Shown: positions 1,723 through 25,491 of the stretch, piece by piece | How the letters are laid out: the number at the start of each line of letters is the position of its first letter | How positions within the stretch are numbered: position 1 is the first letter of the stretch | Assembly (NCBI RefSeq): GCF_007126715.1 | Contig: NZ_SLAT01000178.1 | Reading direction: 5' to 3' (one strand) | Source: Roseinatronobacter sp. | GTDB lineage: Bacteria; Pseudomonadota; Alphaproteobacteria; Rhodobacterales; Rhodobacteraceae | Length of the DNA stretch: 50,555 nucleotides | Translations under genes and position numbers: made by a program | The notes under the pieces: model-generated | What the model was told of the DNA's origin: nothing | Databases searched by the model: none | What the model saw: only the letters and a program-made list of their open reading frames with translations

Positions 1723-2490
1723 TCAGGCGGCCTGTGCCGCGAGGAAGCCTTGCAACCGCTCGGTTGATGGGGCACGCAGCACCTGCCGCGGGTCACCTTG
1801 CTCGGCGATAACTCCCTGATCCAGAAAGATCACGCGGTTGGATACGTCACGCGCAAAGTTCATCTCATGGGTGACCACAATCATGGTACGGCCCTCTTCG
1901 GCAAGGCTGCGCATGACCCGCAAGACTTCTCCGACAAGCTCTGGGTCCAGCGCGCTCGTCGGTTCGTCAAACAACATCAATTCGGGCTCCATCGCCAAGG
2001 CGCGCGCAATGGCCACGCGCTGTTGCTCTCCGCCGGATAAAAACCCCGGATAGGCGGATTTGCGATGGGCAACACCCACGCGGGCCAGATAATGATCGGC
2101 CCGCTCGCCTGCTTCGGCGCGCGACAGGCCATGGACACGGATCGGCCCCAGCATCACGTTGTCTCGGGCGGTCATGTGCGACCAGAGATTGAATTGTTGA
2201 AAAACCATCGTCACCCGCGCACGAAAGGCGCGCAGGCGGGCCTCTTCTGCTACGACCAGATCACCATTTCGGTCGCGTTTGCACACCAACTCTTCGCCGC
2301 CAAATGAAATGCTTCCCTCGGTGGGGTGTTCCAGAAAGTTCAGGCAGCGCAGGAAGGTGCTTTTTCCAGAACCCGATGCACCGATCATGGAGATGACGTC
2401 GCCCTTTCGGGCAGACAGGCTGATCCCGCGCAACACCTCGCGGGTGCCGAAGCGCTTTCGAATATCCTTGGCGTCCAGAAACGTGGTCAT
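1723..2490 (-). CDS. Polar amino acid ABC transporter ATP-binding protein (HisP/AotP-like)
   Basis: Walker [41 protein letters not shown]. Start moved to the ATG at 2490 behind an AAGGAG RBS. Confidence 0.95.
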
Positions 2491-2501
2491 TGCGAGCTCC
2501 T

Positions 2502-3614
2502 TCAAGGGCTTAGAAGAGGGCCGTCCCGAAACGAGACAGCACCAGCGATCTTGCCAAGGCGTTTTCCGGCCTCGGCGATGCGGGTTGCGGGGCGAGAATA
2601 GAAAACGCCGGAAGTCGTAGCTGCAACCGAGGTGACAGCACCGGTTTCGAGGTCGGTGATCTGGGCCACTGTCTCACCCCGCTCGACATATGCACCGAGT
2701 GCAGCGACATAGGACAAAAGCCCCGCGACTGGCGCTGTCAGGGCCTCGGACCCTTCAAGCGGCGTGACGGCGCAGGCCAGTTGGGGCAGATCGACACTGC
2801 CTTCCAGAACACCCAAGTAGATCATGTAATCCATAATCGCCTGCGCGTCCTGCATGCCCAAGTCGCGGCAGACATCCGCGCGCCCACGCAGTTCGACCGT
2901 GCAACTGACACAGCCCAGCGGAATTGGGTGGTCGGGCAGGCGCGCCGCCAAGCTGGCCCAAGGTCGGCTCAATGCCTCATCAAAGGGATGCCCCCCCGAA
3001 ACATCGGCCACAAGCATCGCACGACAGCCAGTAAGAGCGGCAAGGGGTGCGAATGTCTCGGCCGCGGCGGGCTGTGTATAGAGGTGCATTTCCGCCTCGC
3101 CGTCGCAATGCAGATCCAGCACCACGTCAGCGCCGATACCTTGCGCCATCAGATGATGTCGCAATGTGTCGGCAGGGCCAACAGGCAGGCGCTGCGCAAG
3201 TGCATCGGCAAGCGCGCTACGCACTGCGTGGGCATTGGCTTGCGGGTCATCCCCCAGTTGCCCTTGCAGCGCACGCGCGGCGTCTTCGGTCAAATCGGGG
3301 TAGTCGCGATTGAAATTACGCCCGTCATACAGATCAAACCGTCCTGACAGATCACCATGCAGAACCTGACCAAGCGCAAGCGGATTGGCAAAAGGCACAA
3401 CCTTCACATGGCCGCGCAGAATCCCGTCCGCTTCGGCTTTTGCAAGCATATCAACCAGCATCCGCGCCGCCATCATTCCGGGAGCTTCATCGGCATGCAA
3501 TCCGGCTTGGACATACACATATGGTCGTGCCGTTGGGTCGCCAAAGGACAGCGTCAGCACTTCATGCGTGATGCCGGGCCCGCGACCGGGGATTTTGAAA
3601 CGGTGTTCATGCAT
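2502..3614 (-). CDS. Succinylglutamate desuccinylase/aspartoacylase family (M14-like) hydrolase, AotO-like
   Basis: [19 protein letters not shown] and TVELRG motifs; embedded in the amino-acid ABC operon. Confidence 0.9.
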
Positions 3615-4347
3615 TGACGGTTACCTTCGTAGTTTCAGATGGCGAGACATTGGCGCTGTCACGCGGATCAAGATGGCGCAGGAAGAGCTTTTCAAGGATG
3701 CGGAATATCAGTGTCAGTACCACAGTCAGCGCCAGGAAAAACACTGCCGCCATGCCAAAGCTTTCTGTTATGACCAGGTGGTTGTAATAGACATCGCGGC
3801 CCACGCGCAGGATTTCGACGATCGTGATCGTGCTCGCCAGTGCGGTCGCATGCATCAGTTGTACCACCTCGTTGCCATATTGCGGCAGCGCGCGCCGCCA
3901 TGCACCCGGCCAAAATATATCGCGCAACACCTGCGTGCGTGACAGGCCCATGGCGCGGGCCGCCTCTACTTCGCCAGCGGGCGTATTGCGAATGGCTCCG
4001 GCGAAGATTTCAGTCGTATAGGCTGTCGTGTTGAGCGTGAAGGCCAGCCATGCGCAGAAAAATGGATCGCGGAAGAAGGGCCAAAATGCGCTTTGACGGA
4101 CGATGTCCAACTGCGGCAGCCCATAATAGATGATGAACAGTTGTACCAGCAGAGGGGTGCCGCGCAGTATGTAGGTAAAGATGAAAACCGGCCAACTCAA
4201 TAATGGATGGGACGAGGCCCGCGCCAGTGACAACGGGACGGCCAGCGCCAGACCGGCCAGACCGGCAGTGCACAGAAGGATGAGTGTTATCTGCAAGCCG
4301 CGCCAGAAGGCGGGCAACATTTCGATGATGATGGACCAGTTGATCAT
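3607..4347 (-). CDS. Polar amino acid ABC permease (HisM/AotM-like)
   Basis: RGTPLLVQLF, AYTTEIFAGAI, EVEAARAMGLS (EAA loop). Confidence 0.93.
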   Translation of the reverse strand: MINWSIIIEMLPAFWRGLQITLILLCTAGLAGLALAVPLSLARASSHPLLSWPVFIFTYILRGTPLLVQLFIIYYGLPQLDIVRQSAFWPFFRDPFFCAWLAFTLNTTAYTTEIFAGAIRNTPAGEVEAARAMGLSRTQVLRDIFWPGAWRRALPQYGNEVVQLMHATALASTITIVEILRVGRDVYYNHLVITESFGMAAVFFLALTVVLTLIFRILEKLFLRHLDPRDSANVSPSETTKVTVNA

Positions 4348-5033
4348 CCCACGGCCTCCCGTCTCAGGCTGCGTGACATGCGCCAGTTAAGAGCGCCGAG
4401 CCCAAGGATCGAAACCGTGGTGATAGCAAGATAGATGGCGCCAACTATCATGTAGAAAGTGAAGGGTTCGCGTGTGGCCGCAGACGCAAGCGAGGCACGG
4501 TGCATCATGTCATCAAGCCCAATGATGGATACCAGCGCGGTTGCTTTCAGCAGCACCAGCCAGTTATTTGTAAAGCCCGGCAACGCATGACGCACCATCT
4601 GCGGGATAGTGACATTGCGCAGTACTTGCCCGCGAGACAGTCCGATCGATTGCGCTGCTTCTATCTGGCCCCTTGGAATCGCAAGGATTGCGCCGCGAAA
4701 GGTCTCTGTCAGATAGGCACCAAAAACAAAACCCAATGTGATCGTGCCAGCCATGAAGGCATTGACATCCACATATCCCCATCCTTGCGCCTGGGTGATA
4801 GTGTTCAGCAGTATCTGTCCGCCGTAAAAGATGACCAGCATCAGCAACAGGTCAGGAAGCGCACGGATAACCGTGGTATATGTTCCCGCAACCGCCCGCA
4901 AAACGGGAGAGGCTGACAGCTTGGCAACGGCCCCCATCATCCCGAAGACCGATGCTACAGCCAGTGACACCACCGCCACCGACAGAGTGACCCGCAACCC
5001 GTCAAGGATCATGGGTAGGTATCCATGAAACAT
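4344..5033 (-). CDS. Polar amino acid ABC permease (HisQ/AotQ-like)
   Basis: YTTVIRALPDLL, AYLTETFRGA, GQIEAA, NNWLVLLKATALVS. Start set at ATG 5033 after GGAAGG. Confidence 0.93.
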   Translation of the reverse strand: MFHGYLPMILDGLRVTLSVAVVSLAVASVFGMMGAVAKLSASPVLRAVAGTYTTVIRALPDLLLMLVIFYGGQILLNTITQAQGWGYVDVNAFMAGTITLGFVFGAYLTETFRGAILAIPRGQIEAAQSIGLSRGQVLRNVTIPQMVRHALPGFTNNWLVLLKATALVSIIGLDDMMHRASLASAATREPFTFYMIVGAIYLAITTVSILGLGALNWRMSRSLRREAVG

Positions 5034-5055
5034 GCGCTTTCCTTCCCGGCCAGAA

Positions 5056-5080
5056 GCCTGCCCGGCAGTGCCGGGCAGGC
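5056..5080. repeat. Perfect GC-rich inverted repeat between the binding-protein and permease genes (probable mRNA-stabilising hairpin)
   Basis: GCCTGCCCGGCA-G-TGCCGGGCAGGC, with no U tract. Confidence 0.7.
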
Positions 5081-5094
5081 AGGTCAAATCCGCC

Positions 5095-5880
5095 TTAGTT
5101 CAGCGCGTCGCGCGCGGCTTCGGGCATGATGTCAAATTCGAAATACTGGCTGGCCATCTCGTCATAAGTGCCATCGGCCATGATCTCTGCGAGTGCAGCG
5201 TTCACGCGTTCGCGCAGTGCATCATCATTCTTGCGCATGGCAATGCCCACGCCCCCCTCTCCGGCGCGGGTCAGGCTGATCGGGTCGCCCACCTGCACGA
5301 AACCTTCGCCTTGCGGGGTGTTCAGAAAGGCTTCGGCGGACACAACCGACGATCCAAAGGCAATGTCGCCGCGGCCTGCAGCCAGTTCCAGATAGACCGC
5401 AGGCTCACGGTCCACGGCCAGAATCCGGCTGTCGGGATAGTTTTCTTCAAGGAAATCTGCGCGTGGGCTGTTGCGCAAGACAATGATCGTCTGGCCCGCA
5501 AGGTCTTCGGGACTGTAGCTTGTGAAATCGCCTTCTGCCGCGATAAACCGCGACGGCACATCATAGTACGGGTCGGAGAAATCGACCCGCTCGCGCCTTG
5601 CATCCGTGATCGTCATCGAGGCAACGATCATATCGAACCTGTTGGCAGACAGCGCGGGGATCATGCCTTCCCATTCCTGCTGGACCAGTGTGCATTCCAC
5701 TTGCATACGGTCACAAAGGGCATCGGCAATATCGATATCGAAGCCGGAAAGTGCGCCATCGGGCGCCACCTGGCTGAACGGGGGATAGTTGCCTTCGACG
5801 CCTATGCGAATCTGGTCAGATGCAAGGGCTGGGACTGCTAAAACAGTGGTAAGTACGAGTGAAGTAATGGTATTTCTCAT
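5095..5880 (-). CDS. Polar amino acid ABC substrate-binding protein (ArgT/HisJ/AotJ-like)
   Basis: Signal peptide MRNTITSLVLTTVLAVPALA; EGNYPPF, GFDIDIA, WEGMIPAL, ASMTITDAR motifs; GGAG RBS before ATG 5880. Confidence 0.95.
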   Translation of the reverse strand: MRNTITSLVLTTVLAVPALASDQIRIGVEGNYPPFSQVAPDGALSGFDIDIADALCDRMQVECTLVQQEWEGMIPALSANRFDMIVASMTITDARRERVDFSDPYYDVPSRFIAAEGDFTSYSPEDLAGQTIIVLRNSPRADFLEENYPDSRILAVDREPAVYLELAAGRGDIAFGSSVVSAEAFLNTPQGEGFVQVGDPISLTRAGEGGVGIAMRKNDDALRERVNAALAEIMADGTYDEMASQYFEFDIMPEAARDALN

Positions 5881-5930
5881 GTTGAACTCCAGTTGGTGAA
5901 GGTAGGATTCGGGTTGATGTGGCATCTTTT

Positions 5931-5976
5931 TTTTCATAATATAAGAAAATGAAAATAGATCAGTCAAATGAAAATA
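5931..5976. promoter_or_regulatory. Candidate RpiR operator in the divergent promoter
   Basis: TTTTCAT-N11-ATGAAAA inverted repeat (5931-5955) and direct repeat AAATGAAAATA at 5947 and 5966. Confidence 0.4.
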
Positions 5977-6872
5977 TCCGCTGGTCGGCTGGGGTCGCGC
6001 GCGATTTTGCAAAATGCAGCCTTGGGCAACAGGTCGTGGAAAGCCTGCGTACCGGGTCCAGGTCGCAACGTAGCCTTTCGGAATTTATCTTGCGTGATCC
6101 GGTATTTATGGCCACACATGGTATTGAAGATGTGGCGCGCGCTTCGGGCATTTCGGTAAGTACAATCAGCCGGTATGTGCGTGATCTAGGCCTCGAAAAT
6201 TATGCAGCCTTCCGCAGTGGTATTGCCGATCGTGTCCATGCGCTGATTGCCCCTGTTACCAAACTTGAAAGCCGCCTGTCAGAGAATGCAGAGGATGCGC
6301 CCGGCGCCAATTCCCTTGCCACAGCGCAGGCGCAGATGGTCGCTCTGGGCGACGAGGCCACACGTCAAGCGGTTGTCGAGGCCGCGCAGATGTTGGGTAA
6401 GGCGCCGCAGATCTGGGTGATGGGCTTTGGACTTTCGGCGCATCTGGCCGCAATGCTGTCTTTGGGGTTGCAACCCTATCGCGAAGGCGTGGTCAATGTG
6501 GTGCAATATGGGGGTACCGAAGTGGCGGCAGGGCGTCTGATGTCTCTAGGGGAGGGGGATGTCGTGGTCGCGATCTCATTTCCACGGTATTCCAGCGATT
6601 TGAAAGACTTGACTCGCATGGCGCAAGCGATGGGTGCCAAGATCATAGCGCTTACGGATTCCCCTGCGGCACCGCTTGCACAAGAGTGCGACCATTTATT
6701 GCTGGCGCCCGCTCAGCATCCGGTTTTACCATCTTCCTGTCTGCCGGGGCTTGCGTTGATCGAGGCGCTGTTGTCAGAATTCCTGCTATCTGACCCTGCC
6801 AATGTCACCCGCGCCAAGCGCCTTGCAACGATCATGTCCGCATATCTGGCAGATGGCGAGAAGAAGGACTGA
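5949..6872 (+). CDS. MurR/RpiR family transcriptional regulator (HTH + SIS)
   Basis: IEDVARASGISVSTISRYVRDLG HTH; SIS motifs VMGFGLS, AISFPRYS, ALTDSPAAPLA. Start uncertain. Confidence 0.92.
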   Translation: MKIDQSNENIRWSAGVARDFAKCSLGQQVVESLRTGSRSQRSLSEFILRDPVFMATHGIEDVARASGISVSTISRYVRDLGLENYAAFRSGIADRVHALIAPVTKLESRLSENAEDAPGANSLATAQAQMVALGDEATRQAVVEAAQMLGKAPQIWVMGFGLSAHLAAMLSLGLQPYREGVVNVVQYGGTEVAAGRLMSLGEGDVVVAISFPRYSSDLKDLTRMAQAMGAKIIALTDSPAAPLAQECDHLLLAPAQHPVLPSSCLPGLALIEALLSEFLLSDPANVTRAKRLATIMSAYLADGEKKD

Positions 6873-12979: not shown

Positions 12980-14035
12980 TCACTGCGGATCATGCAGAGA
13001 AAGGACCATGTTCAGACGGTTTTCCATTTGTGCCAAATCATCGCTCATCCTTGACATGATTTCTTTTGGGTCAATGGGTTGCCAGTAAGCCAAAGGCGCG
13101 AAGGGCACGAAGATGTCACTTTCCAACGGAAACAAAGCGATGGTCTGCCCTTCGTGGAAGGCAAGGATGACCCTGTCGCGCTGCGCCAGTTCAAGCAAGA
13201 GTTTCTGAGGGAACTGCCTTTCTATTCGCTTAAGGGTGTCGTCCGATTCTGCGAAGGCAAGAAACTGCTGTTCCAACCCTGCAATCGGAGCGACCGCGCA
13301 TAGGCCATGCTTTCCCTTGATCGCCTTGTGTATTCGGATGTCTACCATGTTGGGCAGCAGCACTGCAGTCGCATCGCCCAAGGGATTGATGTTCAGTTTG
13401 ATACAGATGGCGTGAAGGTTCGACTTTCTGTGGCTATCGCGTCGCTGTTGGGCCTTGTAGTGATAATTGATGTTCAGCCGACACAGCGTAACCTCTTGCC
13501 CGGCCCGCTGACCCTTGAACAGGTCGGCCCCTTGCACCGCGCTCACATGGGGAAATAGCGGCCAGTGCCGAATCTTGTCTTTGCTGATAACGGGATCAGG
13601 TTCATACGTGAAACCGCGCAGTGCGATTGCCGCGCTGCGGCCGATAATCGCGCGCGTGGTCTGGCGATATACTCGGGCAGGCCGATATTGCACAAACAGC
13701 CACGCCACCAAGATGGAAATCGCGGAAAGAACTAGCAGGCGCGGAAATTCCAGAAACGGGGCAGACCAGCCGAATAATGCTATGAAAATAAATAGCACTG
13801 CCAGCGCGACCAGAGGCAAAACCAGCCGCGCGCGCCGGTCAAGACCATCACAAATATTACGGCGCAACTTTTCGAGTTCCACCACGGCGTGATCAAGTTC
13901 CGTGCTTTGCTGCCGGAGCCGTATGTCAGTTGCGCGCGCAGGGCCACCTTTGCGGGCGATGCCGATGGATGCTCCGATGCTTGCGATCCGGCGCATGATA
14001 CTGCCCCAGAGGCTGGTCGCTGAAAATCGCGTCAT
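12980..14035 (-). CDS. Hypothetical membrane protein with two N-terminal TM helices and a soluble domain (DUF3137-like layout)
   Basis: Helix ELEKLRR, then TM1 LVLPLVALAVLFIFIALFGW and TM2 LLVLSAISILVAWLFV, then GFTYEPD...DLFKG. Family assignment is by layout only. Confidence 0.65.
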   Translation of the reverse strand: MTRFSATSLWGSIMRRIASIGASIGIARKGGPARATDIRLRQQSTELDHAVVELEKLRRNICDGLDRRARLVLPLVALAVLFIFIALFGWSAPFLEFPRLLVLSAISILVAWLFVQYRPARVYRQTTRAIIGRSAAIALRGFTYEPDPVISKDKIRHWPLFPHVSAVQGADLFKGQRAGQEVTLCRLNINYHYKAQQRRDSHRKSNLHAICIKLNINPLGDATAVLLPNMVDIRIHKAIKGKHGLCAVAPIAGLEQQFLAFAESDDTLKRIERQFPQKLLLELAQRDRVILAFHEGQTIALFPLESDIFVPFAPLAYWQPIDPKEIMSRMSDDLAQMENRLNMVLSLHDPQ

Positions 14036-14144
14036 AGCGTCAGGGCCATCGGGTATGTCACGGGCTGCCTATGAGCTGCCAATCTTGTGACGTGGCAACG
14101 ATCCAAGGCTTGCGGCAAACCACAACCACTTTCCCGAAGTGCAG

Positions 14145-17100
14145 TCATGGCAGCGGGACTGGAAGTTTGACAAGGTTGCCGTGAATGTCGCGGAAGTCGT
14201 CAGGAAAATGAACCCTGATTTGCCCCGGTTCCGCTGCGGGGTTTGCCACCATCACCGATACCCGCCGTGCTTCGCTGTCCGTTTCAATGTTCAGTGCAAC
14301 CTGCGTATCTTCGGCATCTATTGCAGTAATCGCCGCTTCAAACGCGGCCCAGGGCAAAGGTGCCTGGAAGCTCAGGCTGATCGGGTATCCGTCTGAAAAC
14401 TTGTGTGGCTCGACTGACGTGATCTCAACCGTGGATGGTACGACGCCAGAAGGAAGCGTTACAATCGTGTCGGTGAAACTTGGGCCATTGCGCGCCCCGA
14501 TGCGAAATGCAGGCGCGGGCCCCGGAGTCAGCTGCGAGGTATGTACATCAAAACGGCCAGTTGAAACGTGGTGCGCCAGAACATGCCATGGTGCGCTGCC
14601 CGTCGGGCTATAGGCAACCTCTGTCTGCATGATATCCCCGGTTTCGTCCCATTCCAATCGCAGGATATCCGCACTGACCTCGACCAACCGGGAATTGGTG
14701 ATGCCGGGCACATTTGCAGAAGTCGCCAATCGGGCGCGGATCTGTGCGCCATCACGGATCACAAGCGTTGCAGCGTCTTGCTTGACCGGCAAGCTGACGC
14801 GGAAACGCTGCCAACCCATCGGATCATCAACGGGGCGTATTCGGGTTGGGTCGGCCGCCCCCAACAGGCCGACAGGCGCATGGGCCAGAAGCTGGCCATT
14901 CGTATCGTAAAGCTCTGCGATATATTGCCCGGGTCCGGGTGTGGGCCAGCCATCGACCATTCGCGACAGCGCGTGAAGCTGCAATCCCTGTCCCGGAGCG
15001 CCGATCCGACCCGTCAGAACAAGGCGTTCCGTCTGGGCGACACCGTCGGAAAGGCGATTGCCCAGATTGGCCCATCGTTGCATCGGGTTTTTATCCTGTT
15101 GCAGGTTGCCTTCCTGAAAGACTGCGAAAGTGCCTCTTGTGACAGCGGCCTGCATCCGCTCATACTCCCACTTGGTCAGTGACATGTATCGATGATGCAT
15201 CATCCAGGGCCACATCATTGAAACCAGCGTGCCGTCTGCCTCGGCGTTGCCCTCCTGCTGTGACTTGTTCCAACCGTCGAGGCCGTCCGGTGCCATGCGC
15301 CATGCCTCGATCCCGTCCTCATTGCGGCCGCGAAGCGCCTCGGCAGGGACACTGCCGGGATCGGGGCAGGCGGCATCGGGCTGCGTCGCATCTCCGGGCA
15401 CATGTTCAAGCGCGAATTCATGGCCTAGCTCATGCAGATGGACCTGAACCGTTTCGTCCAGATCTGCTGTGGTCTCGAGCACTGAGACATAGACCCGCAT
15501 TCCTGGGAAGCCGAAGCTGGTACGGTCTGTCTGTGCAACAGCCATTCCGACGGCATAACCTGCGACAAGCTCGCCGATGTATCCCTCTGGCACGAAAATG
15601 ACGATGGCATCGCCGTCATTTGTTGCCGCGTCGAGATGCTCGGCCTGTCGAAAGAGTTCTTGCCATTCGCTGAACGCGCGCAACCGGCGTTGTGCAGGCC
15701 GCTGAGCCCTCACATCCTCTGGGGTCATGGCACCTTCCAAGAAAAGAGCGAGTGACGCTATCTGATCTCTCGTCAGATCAGGCGGCGGTGGGAATGTTTC
15801 GTCACGAAGTGTGCATAGAACCTGCTGCTGATCGATGTCAGGCAGGTTCATGTCGTCAAGCAAACCCTGCCACATCTCTGCCCCTAACCGAGAGCCCGAT
15901 GCGCCACCTTCAGCCGATTGTGGGGGTGCTTGTCCAATTGGCGCACCGGAGGCATCGAAATGCAGGTCAGGAAGGGCCTGTTGATCAATCACCGGCAATG
16001 CGGCCTGGCGTATGGCACGGGCCTGACTGTGGGGAAAGAAGCTGGGCACTTGTCGCGCGGTTTCGCGCATGACCGCGCCCGCAAAAGCCTGCACATCGGC
16101 GGGCGCACCTTCTTCCCAGTCGCCGACCCGGGCAAAGGTGTAATGCAGCGTCAGCGTGTCCGGATCAGCGTCCCAGACTTCGTAATCATGTTCGGCTTCA
16201 AAGCGTGCAGCGTCGAGGGGCTCGGGGAAGGGGTCATGCGGCTCCAGATCCAGCCGCAGCGTTCCGGAGTTCGACCCCGGGCGCCAGCCGAAAAAATTCG
16301 CCGTATGCCGGGCGTGGCGGCGGTCCTCGTCTGAAAAGACGGTGTCGTCATCATGGCGCCAGATTTCCAGCGTCTGGCCACGGCGCGCTGCGCCATGTTG
16401 GCCCACCCAGCGCGGATGTCGTTCGCTGAGATTGATCTGCATCCGGAACCGGTCGGGCTGCATGTACTCGGCCACTTCCTCGTGCTTGTCCCAAGTGAAA
16501 TAGGCGCGTGTCAGTGTGGGCTTGTCGCGGGTCAGTTCACCGTCCCGGACCACCTGGAATGTGTGCAGCCGCACAGCTTCGCGGTCGCTGTCGAAGATCG
16601 GCAGCGCAAGTGCCGAGGGCACAGCACCATTTCCCGAGGGCGCCTGCACGCTCAGGTCAAGCATGGTGGAAAAATTCCAGATGTAGTCATCTTCCAGCCG
16701 TGCGCCTTCGGCGCTGATGACACCATCAGGCCCGCCGGTGATCTGTGCATAGTAGATCGTGCCGGAATAGAGGTCGTCATCTGAGGTAAAGCTGTAAGTC
16801 GAGGCACGGTCATGCCTCCATTCTCCGGAAAGGTCGAGTTGGTCACCATCGGGGGCGAGCGTGTAGACTTGAACTGCGCTTTGAAGGCTTGGAAGGTTTA
16901 CCGGCTCGCTGAAGGTGATCGAAATGTTGGGTGTCGAGTGGTTCACATTCTCGCGGTCGGGGCTCGGGGTGACGCGATCAACCTGAAAGGGAGGTTCGCA
17001 GGCGATGGGATCATTCTCGAACCGTCTTCGCTCGACGATGCACAGGCGCACAACCGACGTGCCTACAGGGCGTGCCGAAAGCTGGTGTGACTGGTCGCAG

Positions 17101-17690
17101 GGTGGGACAGACCCCCACGGTGGTTCCGTCGCCGAAAGGCACCCCACTTCCACCGAGCTGACATTGATCTGCAAGCCGTCCGGGTTGCGGTCTATGCGGG
17201 CAAAGCCGTTTTCAGTCAGTAGCATGGCGTCATCGTGCCCCAATGACCGTACCGCGCGCCCTGAGGGCGTCAGGAAATTGGTCCCCATCCCCGCCAATGC
17301 GGTAGGGGATGTATTCATGCCGCCCAGTTGGGAAAACGCGACATGACTCACGCCTTGTTCGCTTGGGGCACCGAGGGTCATAAAGACGATGGCACCCTCT
17401 TCTCCCGGCACATTCAGCGTCGCGTCGATATTGATACCGCGGAGCAGGGCGCGGCCCTCACCTTCAAGTTCGGCCGTCCAGGTACCCTGCGCGCTCAGGC
17501 GCCAGACCACATCGACCGCGCCACTGGCAGTTGCATCGCGGGTATGGCGCTCGGGGGCGGGGGGGTGTTCAAAGGTGAAGGTCTCGCGCGCCTGAAGCTG
17601 GGGCGCCAGCGGCACCAAGGCAGAGAACAGGCCAAGGATGATGGCGGCCAGAACAGGCCGGATCAGGGGGTCAGAACGGTGCGCCGGCAT
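14145..17690 (-). CDS. Large secreted Ig-like-domain protein with a metzincin-type zinc-binding motif
   Basis: Signal peptide ending LQA; Big_5-like domain (VTPSPDRENV...ISITFSEPVN...YIWNFST); HELGHEFALEH; downstream SMMWP (possible Met-turn); second Ig-like C-terminal domain ending FRDIHGN. GGAG RBS before ATG 17690. Confidence 0.8.
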   Translation of the reverse strand: MPAHRSDPLIRPVLAAIILGLFSALVPLAPQLQARETFTFEHPPAPERHTRDATASGAVDVVWRLSAQGTWTAELEGEGRALLRGINIDATLNVPGEEGAIVFMTLGAPSEQGVSHVAFSQLGGMNTSPTALAGMGTNFLTPSGRAVRSLGHDDAMLLTENGFARIDRNPDGLQINVSSVEVGCLSATEPPWGSVPPCDQSHQLSARPVGTSVVRLCIVERRRFENDPIACEPPFQVDRVTPSPDRENVNHSTPNISITFSEPVNLPSLQSAVQVYTLAPDGDQLDLSGEWRHDRASTYSFTSDDDLYSGTIYYAQITGGPDGVISAEGARLEDDYIWNFSTMLDLSVQAPSGNGAVPSALALPIFDSDREAVRLHTFQVVRDGELTRDKPTLTRAYFTWDKHEEVAEYMQPDRFRMQINLSERHPRWVGQHGAARRGQTLEIWRHDDDTVFSDEDRRHARHTANFFGWRPGSNSGTLRLDLEPHDPFPEPLDAARFEAEHDYEVWDADPDTLTLHYTFARVGDWEEGAPADVQAFAGAVMRETARQVPSFFPHSQARAIRQAALPVIDQQALPDLHFDASGAPIGQAPPQSAEGGASGSRLGAEMWQGLLDDMNLPDIDQQQVLCTLRDETFPPPPDLTRDQIASLALFLEGAMTPEDVRAQRPAQRRLRAFSEWQELFRQAEHLDAATNDGDAIVIFVPEGYIGELVAGYAVGMAVAQTDRTSFGFPGMRVYVSVLETTADLDETVQVHLHELGHEFALEHVPGDATQPDAACPDPGSVPAEALRGRNEDGIEAWRMAPDGLDGWNKSQQEGNAEADGTLVSMMWPWMMHHRYMSLTKWEYERMQAAVTRGTFAVFQEGNLQQDKNPMQRWANLGNRLSDGVAQTERLVLTGRIGAPGQGLQLHALSRMVDGWPTPGPGQYIAELYDTNGQLLAHAPVGLLGAADPTRIRPVDDPMGWQRFRVSLPVKQDAATLVIRDGAQIRARLATSANVPGITNSRLVEVSADILRLEWDETGDIMQTEVAYSPTGSAPWHVLAHHVSTGRFDVHTSQLTPGPAPAFRIGARNGPSFTDTIVTLPSGVVPSTVEITSVEPHKFSDGYPISLSFQAPLPWAAFEAAITAIDAEDTQVALNIETDSEARRVSVMVANPAAEPGQIRVHFPDDFRDIHGNLVKLPVPLP

Positions 17691-18771
17691 CGACGATCTC
17701 CGTGGCTCCGCGAACCTGAAAATTAATGCAATCCCCCTCAACTGGCCGCATGCCCTCGACGCGGCACAGACGGCCCTCGACCTCCAACTCTATACGGTCC
17801 TCTTCCTGATCCATCGTCAGGAACCAGATCGTTGCTGTTGCCTGCCCCTCGCCATCGTCGCTGGTGTAGAATACCCTCGGCATGGGGCCTTCCCCGTCAA
17901 CGACAAAGAGAACCTCGACAGGGATGCTTTCGCCCTCAGGGACGGGGGCTTGTGTCCAGATATTCAGGCTCAGCACATCCTGATACAGAAAATTCGCGGA
18001 TGCCGGGGAATGCCCTTGCAGTGACAGATGCACTGTCCCGTCATCGGTCTGACCATAGCTGGCGGTCGCGCTGGCACCCGCGCGCGTGATGGTCAACCAT
18101 TCAAAGGCATCGGTGCCGACCATCCCCTCCAGCCGTCCGAGTATTTCGACCTCGACCGCGCGTGACCCCTGCGCTGCCGGGGCGTCGAGCCCGGCGCTGG
18201 CCGCCGTGAATTCGATCGCTCCGCCCTTGCAGATCATCCCGCCATTTTGCAGAACGGGCGTGAAATCATCATTCTCGACCTCGTGCAGGCAGAACCGGCG
18301 TGATGAAAATTGCCCGCTGACCGTTCCTTCGTCTGTGGTCAGATCCAGCATGATATCAACCGCCTCGGCGCGGTCCAGTTCTGCCAGCCAGATCGTGCTG
18401 GGGTCCGTGTTTGGGTCGGGCCAGTCCTCGATCAGGATGACTTCGGCCGCGACCAGCATATCGGTTGTGAATTGCGCGGGCGCTGTGGCGCCATCGGCCT
18501 CGAATGTCAGGCCGATCATGATCGCGTCATAGGGACCTTTGCCAGGCGCATGGGCTGTCAGGTCGATGTATAGTTCCGCACCGCCGGAAAACTCCATAAG
18601 CTCGATCATCAGGCCGTCATCCGGTGCATCGGGGCTGCCGACGGCGATATCGAACACCTCTCCGTCAATCTGCCCCAGGATGCGTCCGTCCTGCGCAATG
18701 CCCGCAACCGGGATGGCGCTTAACAAAATACCAAGGGCGGCGGCATGGCCGAGATGGGTTATACAGTGCAT
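17671..18771 (-). CDS. Secreted acidic hypothetical protein with two internally duplicated domains
   Basis: Signal peptide MHCITHLGHAAALGILLSAIPVAGIA-Q; GAGG RBS before ATG 18771; overlaps the downstream gene by 20 nt. Confidence 0.75.
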   Translation of the reverse strand: MHCITHLGHAAALGILLSAIPVAGIAQDGRILGQIDGEVFDIAVGSPDAPDDGLMIELMEFSGGAELYIDLTAHAPGKGPYDAIMIGLTFEADGATAPAQFTTDMLVAAEVILIEDWPDPNTDPSTIWLAELDRAEAVDIMLDLTTDEGTVSGQFSSRRFCLHEVENDDFTPVLQNGGMICKGGAIEFTAASAGLDAPAAQGSRAVEVEILGRLEGMVGTDAFEWLTITRAGASATASYGQTDDGTVHLSLQGHSPASANFLYQDVLSLNIWTQAPVPEGESIPVEVLFVVDGEGPMPRVFYTSDDGEGQATATIWFLTMDQEEDRIELEVEGRLCRVEGMRPVEGDCINFQVRGATEIVDAGAPF

Positions 18772-19463
18772 CAGGAGCCTCATAGAAAGGAAATTGGTTG
18801 AGGCAAAGCAGGTGCAGCGCGCGGCACAGCATCCACCTCTGTCGCAGGCCGCGTTGTCGTGGTGGTGATGGATAGATCCACACACTGCGAAAATGATGGC
18901 ATCACCATCTTCATGCAAAACGGTTCCTTTGTGGTGATCACAGAGCCCGGTGGCGAGAGCACAGCCCTGTCGCTAACCATGTATAAGTCAAAGGAAATGG
19001 TCTGCCCCCCTCTAAACAGAGGGGAGATATTGAATCAGCGTTGATAGCGCAAAGATACATGCTTGTGACCCTCAACAGTGGGCACCGAACGCGTCGATCT
19101 GATATCTCCAAATTGTGACAAAACGAGTGCTGAAACTGCCATCCGGGGCCGCCTTCACACGCCCGCCTTGTTGGATTGCGCGCGGTAGGCTGACCGCAGC
19201 GAGCGGGTTACCACGGCCAAGTTTTGCGGTCTTGGTCAACAGCAGATACCTCGCTGCCGGGCTGCTTACTGCGCATTATTGCCGGTCACTGTCAGTATGA
19301 CGGCGGGCTGCTTTCGCAATGTGCTGCATCTGCGTTGCCACTACCTTAAAGGCGCGTTCTCAGCCCTTGCGAAGGCGAGTGCCTGTCCGAGATGACCGGC
19401 CATTCGCTGATTTGCCCAATCAACTGACGGCAGTCATGTCACGAGCCACGGTTGATACTTGCC

Positions 19464-21446
19464 TCAGTGGCGGTTTCTGGCCCAGCTTTGCAACGCCAGA
19501 TCACGGATGATTCCGATCTCGTCCTCGTCAACGGGCGATTCAGATACTGTCTTCAGCCCGTCATCGTGGAAAATATAAAGTCGTGACGTGAATTGCGAAA
19601 AAGGCAGCGAGGCTTCACCAAGGTGCTCCCCGTTGCCTTGCGTCGAAACGACAATACCATCCCCCCAGTCCTGCCCGCTGTCATTATTGGGGTTGAAGAA
19701 ATACACACGCATGACGCCGGATTGGTCAAGTGCCACCCGGATGATGGATATGGCATGCCAGCCCACGAATGCGCCCTGACTGTCCGTCACGGCAATGCCT
19801 GCGGGCTGTGGGTGGATGACAGGCTCATTGCCATTATGCAGCGGATGATAGGCCGTGTGAAAATCCCGGATGAACTTGTCATATTCGGACAGCTTGCCCG
19901 TCGCGATATCCACTGCAATGTGAAACTCGCGGCCAACCCACCATCCATGCAGTTCGGGGTTGATCCAGCGATGCGGATCTTCGGCACGCCCCGCGACCAA
20001 CCGACCCATTTCTGCATAGATACGGTCCAGATGCGGGACCAGAACAATCGAGACCGGGTCTGCATCCAGCGGGGTGTGCAGGGCCAGGCCTGCGGGCAAC
20101 AGGGCGGAATCCAACGGTTTGCCTTCGAAATACATGATGACACGATCATTCGAGGTGGCTTGTGCAAGCTGCCACAGCAGGTAATCGGGGTCATTGAGCG
20201 CCCACATCGACAGGGCGCGCGCCGATTGACAGGTCGGGTTGTTTCCTTGTCCGATCCCCAAAGGTTGCCCTAACAGAAGCATAACGCCCGCAACAAGCCG
20301 CTGGTGTGGTGTCGCTCCGACACCGAAGGCACTGGTCAGGCTTGCTTCGCAGGCGGGTGTCAGCTTGGAACCCAGAAGGCGCCACAGCGACGGCGCTATG
20401 GGCGGTGAGTAAAGAATGCCGCGTTCCAGAATCAAGGCGATACCGAGCGCAGCTTGCGCGGTTCCCGGATGCACGGCCACCTCGATCAATTGCTGCACAA
20501 GCGCCTGATAGCAGCGAAACGAATCCAATCCGGTATTGCTAAGTCCCAGCGCGTCCGACACCAAATAGCCGTGACCGCTTTCAAGCACGAAGCGCAAGAA
20601 TACCGCGTGATAATCCGACACAAGGCCGGTGTCATGCATCGCGCGCGCCATACCGCTGGCTTCGGCCTGCAATGTGCCTGTATCTGACGCGGCGAGCCGG
20701 TCGCGATAGACCTCCAGCCCCGGATCTTCGCGGCACAGTTCGGTTGGCCCGAAAAGCGCGCTGATCAGCCGGCCTGCGCCCAGTCGCGTATCGCTGGTGC
20801 TAAAGCTCTGACCTTCTTCATTCATGGCAAGCGCGATCTGTAGGATCATTGACTTGACATGATCCACCTGAATGGGGCGCTGGCGCAGGATGCGCCAGAC
20901 TTCATCGACAAGCTGGCCCAGAATGCCTTCGGTTCCGATGCTTGCAAGGATGTGCTTGAGCAAGGCATCCACGGCACCGTCCAACTCGCGCGCTTTGACA
21001 CGGTCAGCTTCGTGATGTGCGCCAAGGATTCGGTCCAGATTCAGCGCCAGTACCTGTGCCAGAAAATGGCGCGCGTGTTCAGAGGGCAGGCTTGGCCGCG
21101 CTTTTTCATCGCGTGCGGCAGAAAGAAAGCGCAGCAGGCTGACACATTCCAGCGCAACAGTCCTCGGTTCGGCCATTTTGAGTGTATTTCCGACCATGCC
21201 GGGAATCAGACTCGACGGTGTGGCCCAGTCGGTGCCTGCAAAAATGCCAGCTTGCTCCAATTCCTCGACGCGCGGTTCAAGCGCCGCGATCCCCTCTGGA
21301 TGTTTCAGAAGGCGTTTGATCGTGTCGAGCATCCGCCCTTGATAGGTCGCCTTGCCCGCTGAAGACGCGGTTGAAAGCTGGGACAGCACATGCTCAAAAC
21401 TACGCAGGATCGGGCTGAGTGTCTCGTCCTGAAAGCTGGTGGTCAT
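19464..21446 (-). CDS. Hypothetical protein (660 aa) with a putative C-terminal papain/calpain-like cysteine peptidase domain
   Basis: Long ORF, AGGA RBS before ATG 21446; motifs GIGQGNNPTCQSARA, GWHAISI, YFFNPNNDSGQDWG. CDS is confident; function is inferred. Confidence 0.8.
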   Translation of the reverse strand: MTTSFQDETLSPILRSFEHVLSQLSTASSAGKATYQGRMLDTIKRLLKHPEGIAALEPRVEELEQAGIFAGTDWATPSSLIPGMVGNTLKMAEPRTVALECVSLLRFLSAARDEKARPSLPSEHARHFLAQVLALNLDRILGAHHEADRVKARELDGAVDALLKHILASIGTEGILGQLVDEVWRILRQRPIQVDHVKSMILQIALAMNEEGQSFSTSDTRLGAGRLISALFGPTELCREDPGLEVYRDRLAASDTGTLQAEASGMARAMHDTGLVSDYHAVFLRFVLESGHGYLVSDALGLSNTGLDSFRCYQALVQQLIEVAVHPGTAQAALGIALILERGILYSPPIAPSLWRLLGSKLTPACEASLTSAFGVGATPHQRLVAGVMLLLGQPLGIGQGNNPTCQSARALSMWALNDPDYLLWQLAQATSNDRVIMYFEGKPLDSALLPAGLALHTPLDADPVSIVLVPHLDRIYAEMGRLVAGRAEDPHRWINPELHGWWVGREFHIAVDIATGKLSEYDKFIRDFHTAYHPLHNGNEPVIHPQPAGIAVTDSQGAFVGWHAISIIRVALDQSGVMRVYFFNPNNDSGQDWGDGIVVSTQGNGEHLGEASLPFSQFTSRLYIFHDDGLKTVSESPVDEDEIGIIRDLALQSWARNRH

Positions 21447-21581
21447 TTGTAACGGTCCTGTTTCACGCAAAGGCACTGCGGCTTATGTGGCGGATATCCT
21501 TGCGGCTATCGCGCGGTGATACAACCCTTCAGGTCGTGTATTAATAGGTAACGCCGCGATCGCGCCTTCCCCGGCTGATTT

Positions 21582-21609
21582 CCTGTGCGGGACAGGCAAC
21601 CCGCACAGG
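21582..21609. repeat. 10-bp stem hairpin downstream of the ATP-grasp gene
   Basis: CCTGTGCGGG-ACAGGCAA-CCCGCACAGG; no U tract on the minus (sense) strand. Confidence 0.6.
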
Positions 21610-21654
21610 CCACACGATCTTGAAGCGATCGACGCGTGATGGCGTGAAAGCTCG

Positions 21655-22881
21655 TCAGAGGTAGAAGTCGAGCTCTTCCTGCGCCTTGAGCAAGTCGCGC
21701 AGGCGATGCGGGTCTTCCCCGAAGAAATAGACAAGCCCCCAATGCGTGCCAAAAGCCGTGCGCTTTGTCACTTTGGATTCCATGGGCGGTGCGAGTTCAT
21801 GGAATTCGAAATACGGGTCGTTCTCGGTTTCCGGTGGGATGCTCAACTCGCTTACCACACGGCGTCGGGGGTAGACGCCGAAGCAGCCGGCATGGCCCTT
21901 GGCATCCTTGATCGGGGTCGGGAAGAACGCGTCCAGTTCATCCTGCGTGGCTTTGGGATCAAAGGCCAGAACCAGCGCCTGATAGGCGTTGAAACCGTAA
22001 GCGCGCTCCATCAACTCGAAAGCATTGAAGCCGGGCGGACGGTAGGCCACCTCACCGAAATACATGGTCCCGTCATTGGTGACAAAATACTCAGGGTGGA
22101 TGAACCCGAAATCAATGTCGAACACCTCGATCAGCTTTTCGATCTGCTCGGTGATCTTGGCGCGGTATTTTTCCAGCTCCGGCGTAGCAGGCACGAAGAC
22201 CGAATAGCCCAGAGTCACATATTCCGAGATATTCAGGAACTGAATCTTACGATCCTTGATCCATGCCTCGACCGCGAATTCCCAGCCGTCAAGATGCGAT
22301 TCCAGTAGGGCCGGGAATTCATCATCGGCAATCGCGGCCACATCATCGGGCGAGCGTATGACCCGGTGGCCAAGGCAACCTGCCTTGTCGAAAGCCTTGA
22401 AATGGATCGGGTCATTCGGGTCCCCGTCCAGTTTCAGCAATGTCTGATTGACGCGCTTTAGAAAGCGGATCACGTCGGTGTGGTCCATCGCTTCCTCGAA
22501 GATGCCGACGCGAATGCCACCAAGCTGCGCACGACGTTTCATCAGGGACTTGTCGCGAAACAGCATCGACTGGCCAAGCAATCGCGGATTTTTCATCAGC
22601 ACCGAGTTGATCGCGCCTGCCCATTCGACAGTTTCTTCAAACAGCGGAATCGCCACATCGACGCCCATGTCCTTCAGCGTGGTTGAAAGCTCAAAGGACC
22701 GGTCATTCAGGCGCTCGAAATCCCAGCTGACGAAGGGGATGCCATGCTGGGTCGCATAGTCCTCGGCCCATTGCGGTGCGACGATCACATAGCGCCGGTC
22801 GAATTTCTCCAGCGCGTCGATGCATCTCAAGCTCCAGCCAAGGATAGCGACATAGCCTTTCTGCGGGTCTTTGGTTTGCAT
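21655..22881 (-). CDS. ATP-grasp carboxylate-amine ligase (L-amino-acid-ligase-like)
   Basis: FRDKSLMKRRAQLGGI, FKAFDKAGCLGHRVI, LLESHLDGWEFAVE, GFIHPEYF, YFGEVAYRPPG; strong AAGGAG RBS. Confidence 0.88.
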   Translation of the reverse strand: MQTKDPQKGYVAILGWSLRCIDALEKFDRRYVIVAPQWAEDYATQHGIPFVSWDFERLNDRSFELSTTLKDMGVDVAIPLFEETVEWAGAINSVLMKNPRLLGQSMLFRDKSLMKRRAQLGGIRVGIFEEAMDHTDVIRFLKRVNQTLLKLDGDPNDPIHFKAFDKAGCLGHRVIRSPDDVAAIADDEFPALLESHLDGWEFAVEAWIKDRKIQFLNISEYVTLGYSVFVPATPELEKYRAKITEQIEKLIEVFDIDFGFIHPEYFVTNDGTMYFGEVAYRPPGFNAFELMERAYGFNAYQALVLAFDPKATQDELDAFFPTPIKDAKGHAGCFGVYPRRRVVSELSIPPETENDPYFEFHELAPPMESKVTKRTAFGTHWGLVYFFGEDPHRLRDLLKAQEELDFYL

Positions 22882-24259: not shown

Positions 24260-25429
24260 CTACAAAAGCACACTCGGGTCGCCAAAGCCTTGGGGTATAT
24301 AGAGGTTATGCGGGCCAAGGTTTTTCACATCCGTCTCGCCACATAGGGCCATGGTGATATCAAGTTCCTTGTGGATCACCTCTAGCGCCTTGGTCACGCC
24401 GGCCTGACCCATCGCGCCCAGACCATAGGTATAGGCGCGCCCGATATAGGTTGCCTTGGCCCCCAGTGCCAGCGCCTTTAGCACATCCTGACCAGAGCGG
24501 ATACCGCTATCGAGATGGACCTCGACATCCTTGCCCACGGCCTCGACAATCGAGGGCAGCATACGGATTGAACTGACTGCGCCATCCAGTTGGCGGCCAC
24601 CGTGGTTGGACACGACAATCGCATCCGCGCCTATATCGGCTGCGCGGCGTGCATCTTCTGGGTCCATGATTCCCTTGACGATGACCTTGCCACCCCACCA
24701 TTCCTTGAACTGTGCGATCCGGTCCCAGTTCAGGGCCGGGTCGAACGCCTCGGCGGTCCAGGTCGACAGCGATGACGGGTCGCTGACGCCTTTCGCATGG
24801 CCGACGATATTGCCAAAGAAACGGCGCTTGGTGCCCAGCATCTCCAGCCCCCAAGGGATTTTCGTCATCATATTGGCGATGGATTTGGCGGTCAGCTTGG
24901 GTGGGGCAGACAGGCCGTTTTTCAGATCCTTGTGGCGCTGGCCCAAGACCTGAAGATCGACCGTAATCACGATGGCTGAACATTTGGCCGCATGCGCACG
25001 TTCGAACAGGCGGCGCATGAAGTCGTCGTCTTTCAGCGTATAGACCTGAAACCAGAACGGGTTTTTCGTATGCGCCGCCACATCCTCGATCGAGCAGATC
25101 GACATTGTTGACAGCGTATAGGGCACGCCAAATTTCTCGGCTGCGCGGGCGGCCTTGATTTCGCCATCGGCAGATTGCATGCCTGTCAGCCCGACCGGCG
25201 CAAGGCCGACCGGCATGGCCACATCCTGCCCGATCATCTGCGACTTGGTAGAGCGGCCGGACATATCGACGGCAACGCGCTGCTTCAGCCGGATTTGCGC
25301 GAAATCCGAGGTATTTTCTCGGAAGGTCTGTTCTGTCCAGCTGCCCGATTCCGCGTAGTCATAAAACATGCGCGGGGTGCGTCGCTCGTAAATCTTGCGC
25401 AGATCCTCAATATTGGTGATGACGGGCAT
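24260..25429 (-). CDS. lldD: FMN-dependent alpha-hydroxy acid dehydrogenase (L-lactate dehydrogenase)
   Basis: PRMFYDYAESGS, LSTMSICSIE, VSNHGGRQLDGA, DSGIRSGQDVLKALALGA. Confidence 0.92.
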   Translation of the reverse strand: MPVITNIEDLRKIYERRTPRMFYDYAESGSWTEQTFRENTSDFAQIRLKQRVAVDMSGRSTKSQMIGQDVAMPVGLAPVGLTGMQSADGEIKAARAAEKFGVPYTLSTMSICSIEDVAAHTKNPFWFQVYTLKDDDFMRRLFERAHAAKCSAIVITVDLQVLGQRHKDLKNGLSAPPKLTAKSIANMMTKIPWGLEMLGTKRRFFGNIVGHAKGVSDPSSLSTWTAEAFDPALNWDRIAQFKEWWGGKVIVKGIMDPEDARRAADIGADAIVVSNHGGRQLDGAVSSIRMLPSIVEAVGKDVEVHLDSGIRSGQDVLKALALGAKATYIGRAYTYGLGAMGQAGVTKALEVIHKELDITMALCGETDVKNLGPHNLYIPQGFGDPSVLL

Positions 25430-25491
25430 TCGGGCTCCCCCCTGAAATTGGTAAAAAATGTTTACCGAAGCCAAGGGGCTGATGCAAGTGT

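Follow-up and report, generated by a model that had tools for sequence, protein, structure and literature searches.

The make-and-break logic of glutathionylspermidine synthetase/amidase joins an ATP-dependent ligase to a papain-fold cysteine enzyme, and the osmolyte cluster for N-acetylglutaminylglutamine amide (NAGGN) comprises an asparagine-synthase-like enzyme, a GNAT/ATP-grasp enzyme, and an M42 peptidase. Iyer et al. (2009) reportedly treat amidoligase operons and may describe related systems. According to the respective papers, the Escherichia coli glutathionylspermidine synthetase/amidase (PDB 2IO7) has a CHAP papain-like domain, and papain-family chemistry involves acyl-enzyme formation (PMC10318531); ATP-grasp chemistry runs via an acyl-phosphate intermediate (PMC6920838, PMC9486568); in the hmrA/ldmS operon, the neighbor of the LdmS gene has a proposed role in breaking down the dipeptide that LdmS makes (PMC9486568); and other ATP-grasp systems are described in PMC2922099. 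Here, we describe two genes in a 50,555-nucleotide stretch of Roseinatronobacter sp. DNA (contig NZ_SLAT01000178.1; hereafter, the window), which encode an ATP-grasp ligase and a partner protein with a predicted papain-like active site. The pair is real and uncharacterized, and it is of the ligase-plus-cysteine-enzyme kind.

Homologs of the two genes are usually linked. Among 79 genome loci (obtained from the best 80 of 591 matches, a set biased to close relatives), the ligase is in the same locus as the partner in 69; it lies directly upstream on the same strand in 68 and is divergent in 1, while 5 loci end at a contig edge and 5 have no ligase. All five genomes of the last category hold the ligase elsewhere, in three cases beside another partner copy. 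Rare adjacency of the homologs, which would have spoken against the peptide synthesis/turnover system proposed in the first-pass annotation of this DNA, was thus not observed. The two genes also co-occur exactly. Both were present in 11 of 41 genomes drawn from relatives (30 had neither) and in 11 of 301 genomes drawn from the phylum (290 had neither), and no genome in either draw had only one; one genome (G000) belongs to both draws. The ligase and the partner co-diverge (Spearman coefficient, 0.72; 53 dereplicated pairs; a value reached in 0 of 999 permutations), and the linkage persists on the deepest partner branches (L110, L111, L113, L136, and L171). No transporter, precursor peptide, or further enzyme was conserved beside the pair in most of the loci. 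The earlier description of the pair as accessory holds at the gene level, the partner being found in 10 of 25 genomes from the genus and in 6 of 251 from the order.

The carriers are nested within ectoine makers, which is a new observation on the pair. In the phylum draw, ectC was over the cut-off in all 11 carriers compared with 51 of the 301 genomes overall; without G000, it was present in 10 of 10 carriers from five families (nominal Fisher p = 7e-9, an overstated value since kin are not independent). The draw from the order, in which the partner alone was searched and which is the only habitat-matched control without ectoine for this association, gave ectC in 6 of 6 carriers versus 91 of the 251 genomes (Fisher p = 0.006 without G000), and none of the 160 ectC-negative genomes had the partner. 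In the relatives draw, 10 of 11 carriers had ectC; the exception (G004) has ectA and a truncated ectB at a contig end. A further 10 carriers, picked from the 79 loci for taxonomic spread, had ectC in nine cases, including two Myxococcota, one Dehalococcoidia, and one Burkholderiaceae genome. Taken together, these sets comprise 36 distinct carriers, with ectC in 34 and ectC or ectA in 35.

Physical proximity to ectoine genes was seen in some loci. In L046, one strand carries ask-ectD-ectC-ectB-ectA; the opposite strand carries an ectR-like MarR gene, the ligase, and the partner, with 71 bp between the MarR gene and the ligase. The window genome has a MarR gene divergent from ectA, which we take to be ectR, and the L046 gene shares 43% identity with it. 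The next recognizable gene after the partner in L028 is ectD, which also lies 5.6 kb from the pair in L023. In L128, L130, and four near-copies, the partner has a lone ectC as its divergent neighbor. An ect gene is present in 3 of the 79 genome loci, versus approximately 0.3 expected under a rough model. The nesting of the carriers within ectoine makers independently supports the osmolyte or stress role suggested in the first-pass annotation, but the hint from a neighboring osmC is not supported: a close osmC (54%) was found in only 1 of 203 loci (L126), plus three weak matches (29%), and we rejected osmC as a system member and regard it as a chance neighbor. Separately, the G004 ligase (L185:2603-3946) has an in-frame TAG mid-gene and is either a pseudogene or affected by an assembly error; loss of the ectoine pathway was rejected as the cause, ectA and ectB being present.

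A distinct HDAC-family protein (PF00850) recurs beside the pair; its catalytic motifs are intact, and its N-terminal part carries a distinctive insert. Members of this subfamily are 62 to 93% identical to one another and approximately 40% identical to the housekeeping HDAC of the window genome. In a search of the 301 genomes (E = 1e-100), the subfamily was present in nine, which are exactly 9 of the 11 carriers (i.e., those outside the window's class), and in 0 of the 290 noncarriers, including 0 of 40 that are ectC positive. Among three ectC-positive genomes of one genus (g123), G207 alone has the pair and alone has the subfamily. The gene adjoins the pair in L012 to L015 (Desulfobulbaceae), L062, L073, G207, G267, and G308. 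In G256, approximately 3 kb separate it from a ligase, and in the other five of the nine genomes it is unlinked; it was also found in two of five further carriers. Among solved structures, it is most closely related to HDAC6 and to bacterial class II-like deacetylases, whereas acetylpolyamine amidohydrolase scores lower. The HDAC of the window genome on contig C130 was rejected as a dedicated partner, being of a common type (36 of 41 relatives).

Other acetyl-related genes occur at individual loci. The best candidate locus for a reconstitution of the complete system is L073:3620-8876, with co-oriented GNAT, HDAC, ligase, and partner genes. In L136:205-8917, the pair closes a co-oriented run resembling argC, argB, argD, an amino-acid acetyltransferase, argJ, and a further GNAT gene, which suggests ornithine chemistry in that lineage. 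In L106 and L107, argD-like and argJ-like genes precede standalone partners. The arg labels denote sequence resemblance; such neighbors fit the theme of an acetylated diamino acid.

The features of the pair in the window are as follows.

21655..22881, minus strand: ATP-grasp ligase gene (408 amino acids [aa]; resembles L-amino-acid ligases; K111, K162, E194, H262, E264, E277, and R281 invariant)
19464..21446, minus strand: partner gene (660 aa from ATG; no Pfam or NCBIfam family and no PDB sequence match)
21447..21654, no strand: intergenic region (208 bp; unconserved except for a ribosome-binding-like motif at 21456-21461)
20268..21419, minus strand: all-helical N-terminal region of the partner, residues 10-393 (predicted local distance difference test [pLDDT] score of 93; generic helical matches only)
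19557..20267, minus strand: predicted papain-fold domain of the partner, residues 394-630 (from structure matches)
20229..20249, minus strand: partner codons from Gln400 (predicted oxyanion hole) to Cys406 (predicted nucleophile; from conservation)
19755..19757, minus strand: partner His564 codon, predicted to be catalytic (from conservation)
19692..19694, minus strand: partner Asn585 codon, predicted third triad residue (from conservation)

Both open reading frames (ORFs) lie on the minus strand with a gap of 208 bp, in agreement with the co-orientation and the spacing of about 210 bp reported at first. The ORF finder offered an alternative partner start (GTG at 21476; 670 aa). We prefer the ATG because the ACAGGA motif at 21456-21461 is kept in close relatives and close homologs have 660 aa. 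A scan of the gap, which performed at chance level, gave no promoter-like or terminator-like match. Hydropathy (best 19-residue means of 0.92 and 1.33; no dedicated predictor) is consistent with the reported lack of signal peptides and indicates no membrane helix in either protein. The G+C content of the two genes (0.56 and 0.58, versus 0.59 for the genome) carries no foreign mark, and a plasmid search returned one unannotated Halomonas record. The closest named relatives are from Pararhodobacter and Roseinatronobacter (83 to 88%). In three stranded metatranscriptomes from one study, 63, 35, and 81 reads of relatives, mostly <95% identical, cover parts of both genes. All first mates map on the plus strand, which indicates sense RNA under the usual library design. 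Among the pieces listed, none crosses the unconserved intergenic gap. These reads show transcription of homologs, neither of this genome nor co-transcription. Run X1, which consists of contigs and covers a small share of the window, was set aside with respect to habitat.

The identification of the 408-aa protein as an ATP-grasp enzyme was upheld at the profile level. The single sequence matched Pfam ATP-grasp_4 at E = 3.4e-4, under the curated cut-off, and found no solved structure in a PDB sequence search. A profile of 72 sequences matched RizA (4wd3; E = 1.4e-7), 4dim (3.6e-6), and BL00235 (3vot; 5.3e-5), and D-Ala-D-Ala ligases far more weakly; the Atlas neighbors of the ligase are ATP-grasp proteins without exception. 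On this significant profile similarity to ATP-grasp structures, the ligase is assigned to the ATP-grasp superfamily. K162, E194, E264, E277, and R281 are invariant (72/72) and align with the motifs of RizA and BL00235; presumably, they are the nucleotide-, metal-, and carboxylate-binding positions. The ligase is strongly conserved across phyla (median identity, 75%; minimum, 46%; 53 dereplicated loci) and has at least 1,818 clustered relatives; no fused or longer form was found, which is weak evidence. 

The partner matched no Pfam family at E = 0.1, no NCBIfam family, and no PDB sequence. Its clustered relatives number at least 2,530 and, where named, are always "hypothetical"; the more divergent ones include sequences from Ureibacillus, Mesobacillus, Virgibacillus, and Cyclonatronaceae. 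The AlphaFold model (pLDDT, 83) has two parts. Residues 394 to 630 match papain-fold families at Z = 5.8 to 7.3, with C39 peptidases, calpain cores, staphopain, and phytochelatin synthase at Z = 6.6 to 7.3; for the calpain cores, the Foldseek probability is 0.77 to 0.98 (E = 0.03 or worse). In the model, the Cys opens a helix, the His and the Asn are on strands, and the oxyanion Gln precedes the Cys. The papain-like motif set noticed in the first-pass annotation is indeed present, i.e., QPLGIGQGNNPTC (Q400 and C406), GWHA (H564), and FFNPNN (N585). Gln400, Cys406, His564, and Asn585 are conserved in all 150 partner homologs examined (one His being an ambiguous X), 52 of which come from loci without a ligase, and Q400 and C406 are invariant in 46 of 46 deep sequences. 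Since several moderate family matches agree and these four residues are invariant, the prediction of a papain-like (clan CA) fold for the C-terminal part is convincing. The partner cannot be assigned to any single one of the calpain, C39, staphopain, and phytochelatin synthase families. Calpain (MEROPS C2, PF00648) membership was rejected, with no Pfam match and no calpain in PDB searches by sequence or deep profile, as was phytochelatin synthase (C83, PF05023) membership, with no Pfam match and an Asn as the third triad residue; the phytochelatin synthase triad is Cys-His-Asp.

The N-terminal region (residues 10 to 393), modeled alone, is all-helical. A fold search with these 390 residues returned generic helical matches only (best Z = 7.0 over approximately 60 residues; Foldseek E of at least 0.4), which gives no functional inference and does not establish a new fold; weak deep-profile matches to PPR repeats were rejected as helical noise. 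A complex prediction (partner residues 68 to 660 with ligase residues 5 to 408; 72-row alignments) scored 0.00 and is counted neither way. A deep clade of shorter partners (approximately 608 aa; L105 to L108) is without the C-terminal helix of the other members, and those in L106 to L108 are followed by an Amidohydro_3 gene.

From the observed anatomy, residue conservation, co-occurrence, linkage, ectoine nesting, and HDAC association in other lineages, we tentatively suggest that the pair is a conserved module for a make-and-break cycle on a small peptide of a diamino acid from the ectoine pathway, perhaps N-gamma-acetyl-2,4-diaminobutyrate or its deacetylated form, a reading that we consider possible and somewhat short of probable. 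In such a cycle, the ligase would convert the carboxyl group of an amino acid to an acyl phosphate and couple it with a free amine. The partner, located in the cytoplasm, would then hydrolyze or transfer the product via an acyl-enzyme at Cys406, and its helical region would probably serve substrate binding or access control. Where present, the dedicated HDAC-family enzyme would remove the side-chain acetyl group. Such a cycle could park or recycle an osmolyte precursor when salinity changes. We propose an N-acetylated diamino acid because it is the simplest substrate that ties the ectoine requirement to a dedicated deacetylase; N-acetylated diamino acids are listed among the compatible solutes in PMC9597258. 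A broader version is slightly less probable: an unrecognized ectoine-type branch, in which the ligase, a new papain-fold family, and the HDAC would reversibly store N-acetyl-diaminobutyrate (in other lineages, acetylornithine) as a peptide or polymer reserve and which would occur across many phyla, in hundreds of halophilic species. At the boldest, the ATP-grasp enzyme, the papain fold, the GNAT, and the class II HDAC would act on a protein, like a bacterial tubulin code.

Several observations weigh against this proposal. The candidate substrate is wholly inferred, with N-acetyl-diaminobutyrate as one example. One carrier (G576; completeness not given) has no ectC, ectA, or ectB over the cut-off, and 76 of the 79 genome loci have no ect gene nearby. 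ectC may be a mere marker of salt-adapted bacteria or salty habitats: within the genus, it does not discriminate (ectC in 21 of 24 genomes; the pair in 9 of 24), and kin are not independent. In the phylum draw, 40 of the 51 ectoine makers are without the pair. A link to ectoine breakdown via the hydrolase eutD was not supported, with a near-cut-off match in only one of five genomes, and eutD is thus not required. The HDAC subfamily was not found in G573, G575, and G581, nor in any of the 11 alphaproteobacterial carriers tested at E = 1e-75, the window genome included; alphaproteobacterial HDAC matches reach only 37 to 44% (5/5 tested), and G069 is also without the subfamily. The window organism would thus run the pair without it. 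The structural resemblance to papain folds is of moderate strength (best Z, approximately 7; Foldseek E no better than 0.03). Moreover, standalone partners are common: in 80 metagenome loci obtained by means of a deep alignment, many of them near-copies, the ligase was present in 30, clearly absent from 29 (at least 1.5 kb on both sides), and 21 loci were too short, while three genomes of one genus hold three to four partners versus two to three ligases. The system is therefore not always two adjacent genes, given the standalone partners and a deacetylase component in other lineages. In this respect and in its use of osmC, the peptide synthesis/turnover idea needed revision; the idea itself is supported in part, with the linkage and the exact co-occurrence in its favor and the ectoine nesting in favor of its osmolyte or stress element.

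Of the other explanations, the one that survives best, although we consider it unlikely, is that ectC only marks halophiles and that the pair builds and breaks down an unrelated small peptide solute composed of common amino acids, such as a NAGGN-like N-acetylated dipeptide, with the deacetylase degrading it. The pair has neither a third biosynthetic gene nor a transporter as a conserved neighbor, so that the substrates are probably general; the named carriers are largely salt or alkali dwellers; a GNAT gene adjoins the HDAC gene in L073, L196, and G580 and immediately precedes the ligase in L136; and BCCT transporters are found nearby in L018, L034, and L186. However, although the order of the window is largely marine, the partner was absent from all 160 ectC-negative genomes drawn from it. 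The pair in L046 is placed directly behind ectR, and the GNAT of L073 was found in only one of five carriers tested.

It is distinctly unlikely, in our view, that the pair serves protein tagging, in which the ligase would add an amino acid to a protein, the helical region would recognize the target, the Cys-His-Asn site would remove the tag, and the GNAT and HDAC would toggle acetylation of the same site. The large conserved helical region of 390 residues is typical of a scaffold, and the high conservation of the ligase and the HDAC6-like relatives of the deacetylase also point in this direction. The nearest solved relatives of the ligase are nevertheless small-molecule ligases, not the RimK or tubulin-ligase types; no candidate target gene is conserved nearby; and a tag alone leaves the ectoine nesting unexplained. 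A storage polymer, in which the partner would polymerize the ligase's dipeptide by transpeptidation, as in phytochelatin synthase, into an osmotically silent, cyanophycin-like reserve, is very unlikely. The fold matches do include the phytochelatin synthase Alr0975 (Z = 6.6; root mean square deviation, 4.2; 151 residues), and the helical region could hold a growing chain, but this Z score is tied with those of C39 peptidases, calpains, and staphopain, the pair has no separate depolymerase as a conserved companion, and standalone partner paralogs better suit hydrolases. Finally, a partner that is a general protease or noncatalytic regulator sharing no substrate with the ligase would suit the standalone copies and the deep-branching shorter partners of L105 to L108, beside which no ligase was seen (on short contigs), but is scarcely credible given the exact co-occurrence, the co-divergence, the linkage on the deepest branches, and the invariant triad.

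Several neighboring genes in the window were also recorded. Downstream of the pair, at 12980-18918 on the minus strand, are three co-oriented genes encoding proteins of 415, 1,198, and 351 aa. The 415-aa and 351-aa proteins match no family, the 1,198-aa protein has an Ig-like Big_5 domain and a HELGHEFALEH metallopeptidase-like motif, and no homologs of the three were found in the other loci compared. At least 13 kb from the pair, at 1723-6012 on the minus strand, is a basic-amino-acid ABC transporter operon (a binding protein, two permeases, and an ATPase), whose best NCBIfam matches, below the cut-offs, are lysine/arginine/ornithine and histidine transporters; an AstE/AspA-family hydrolase gene is inserted in it at 2502-3614. 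In another genome (G288; L188:3958-7387), a standalone ligase and one small gene are followed by an FMN-dependent dehydrogenase 86% identical to that at 24260-25474 of the window. This layout mirrors the ligase-osmC-dehydrogenase order of the window and is possibly a shared mobile block or due to chance.

The ectoine nesting and the co-occurring deacetylase point to acetylated diamino acids and thereby shorten the list of candidate substrates for this widespread, strongly conserved pair. If the proposed cycle is true, it would provide a new metabolite or storage route in the osmoadaptation of bacteria used for ectoine production, as well as a function for >2,500 clustered proteins without a Pfam entry and for a bacterial HDAC subfamily. 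In the accessible literature, we found no published account of this pair, and the supplements of Iyer et al. (2009) and PMC10318531 may list the family. Membership in the glutathionylspermidine synthetase/amidase family (GSP_synth fused to CHAP) was rejected, neither family being matched; cyanophycin synthetase or NAGGN membership was also rejected, with no NCBIfam match and no such recurring neighbors in the 79 loci.

Compared with the L-amino-acid ligases RizA (4wd3) and BL00235 (3vot), the window ligase shares the ATP-grasp core, the H-x-E and E-x-x-x-R motifs, and a similar length, but it is very distant (profile E = 1e-7 at best) and far more conserved across phyla. The partner shares with calpain C2, C39, staphopain, and C83 the predicted papain fold and the order Gln...Cys, His, Asn (Foldseek probability of at most 0.98), whereas the identity is 10 to 16%, the flanking domains are different, and there is no sequence-level match. 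The hmrA/ldmS operon likewise places a ligase beside a proposed breakdown gene, which is HmrA there and a papain-fold partner here. The NAGGN cluster also employs an ATP-grasp enzyme and a peptidase in salt adaptation, but its genes are not conserved neighbors of the pair, and its ligase and peptidase have other folds. Glutathionylspermidine synthetase/amidase has the same make-and-break logic with a ligase and a papain-fold enzyme, while the window pair consists of two genes, with an L-amino-acid-ligase-like enzyme and a calpain/C39-like domain attached to a helical region of 390 residues.

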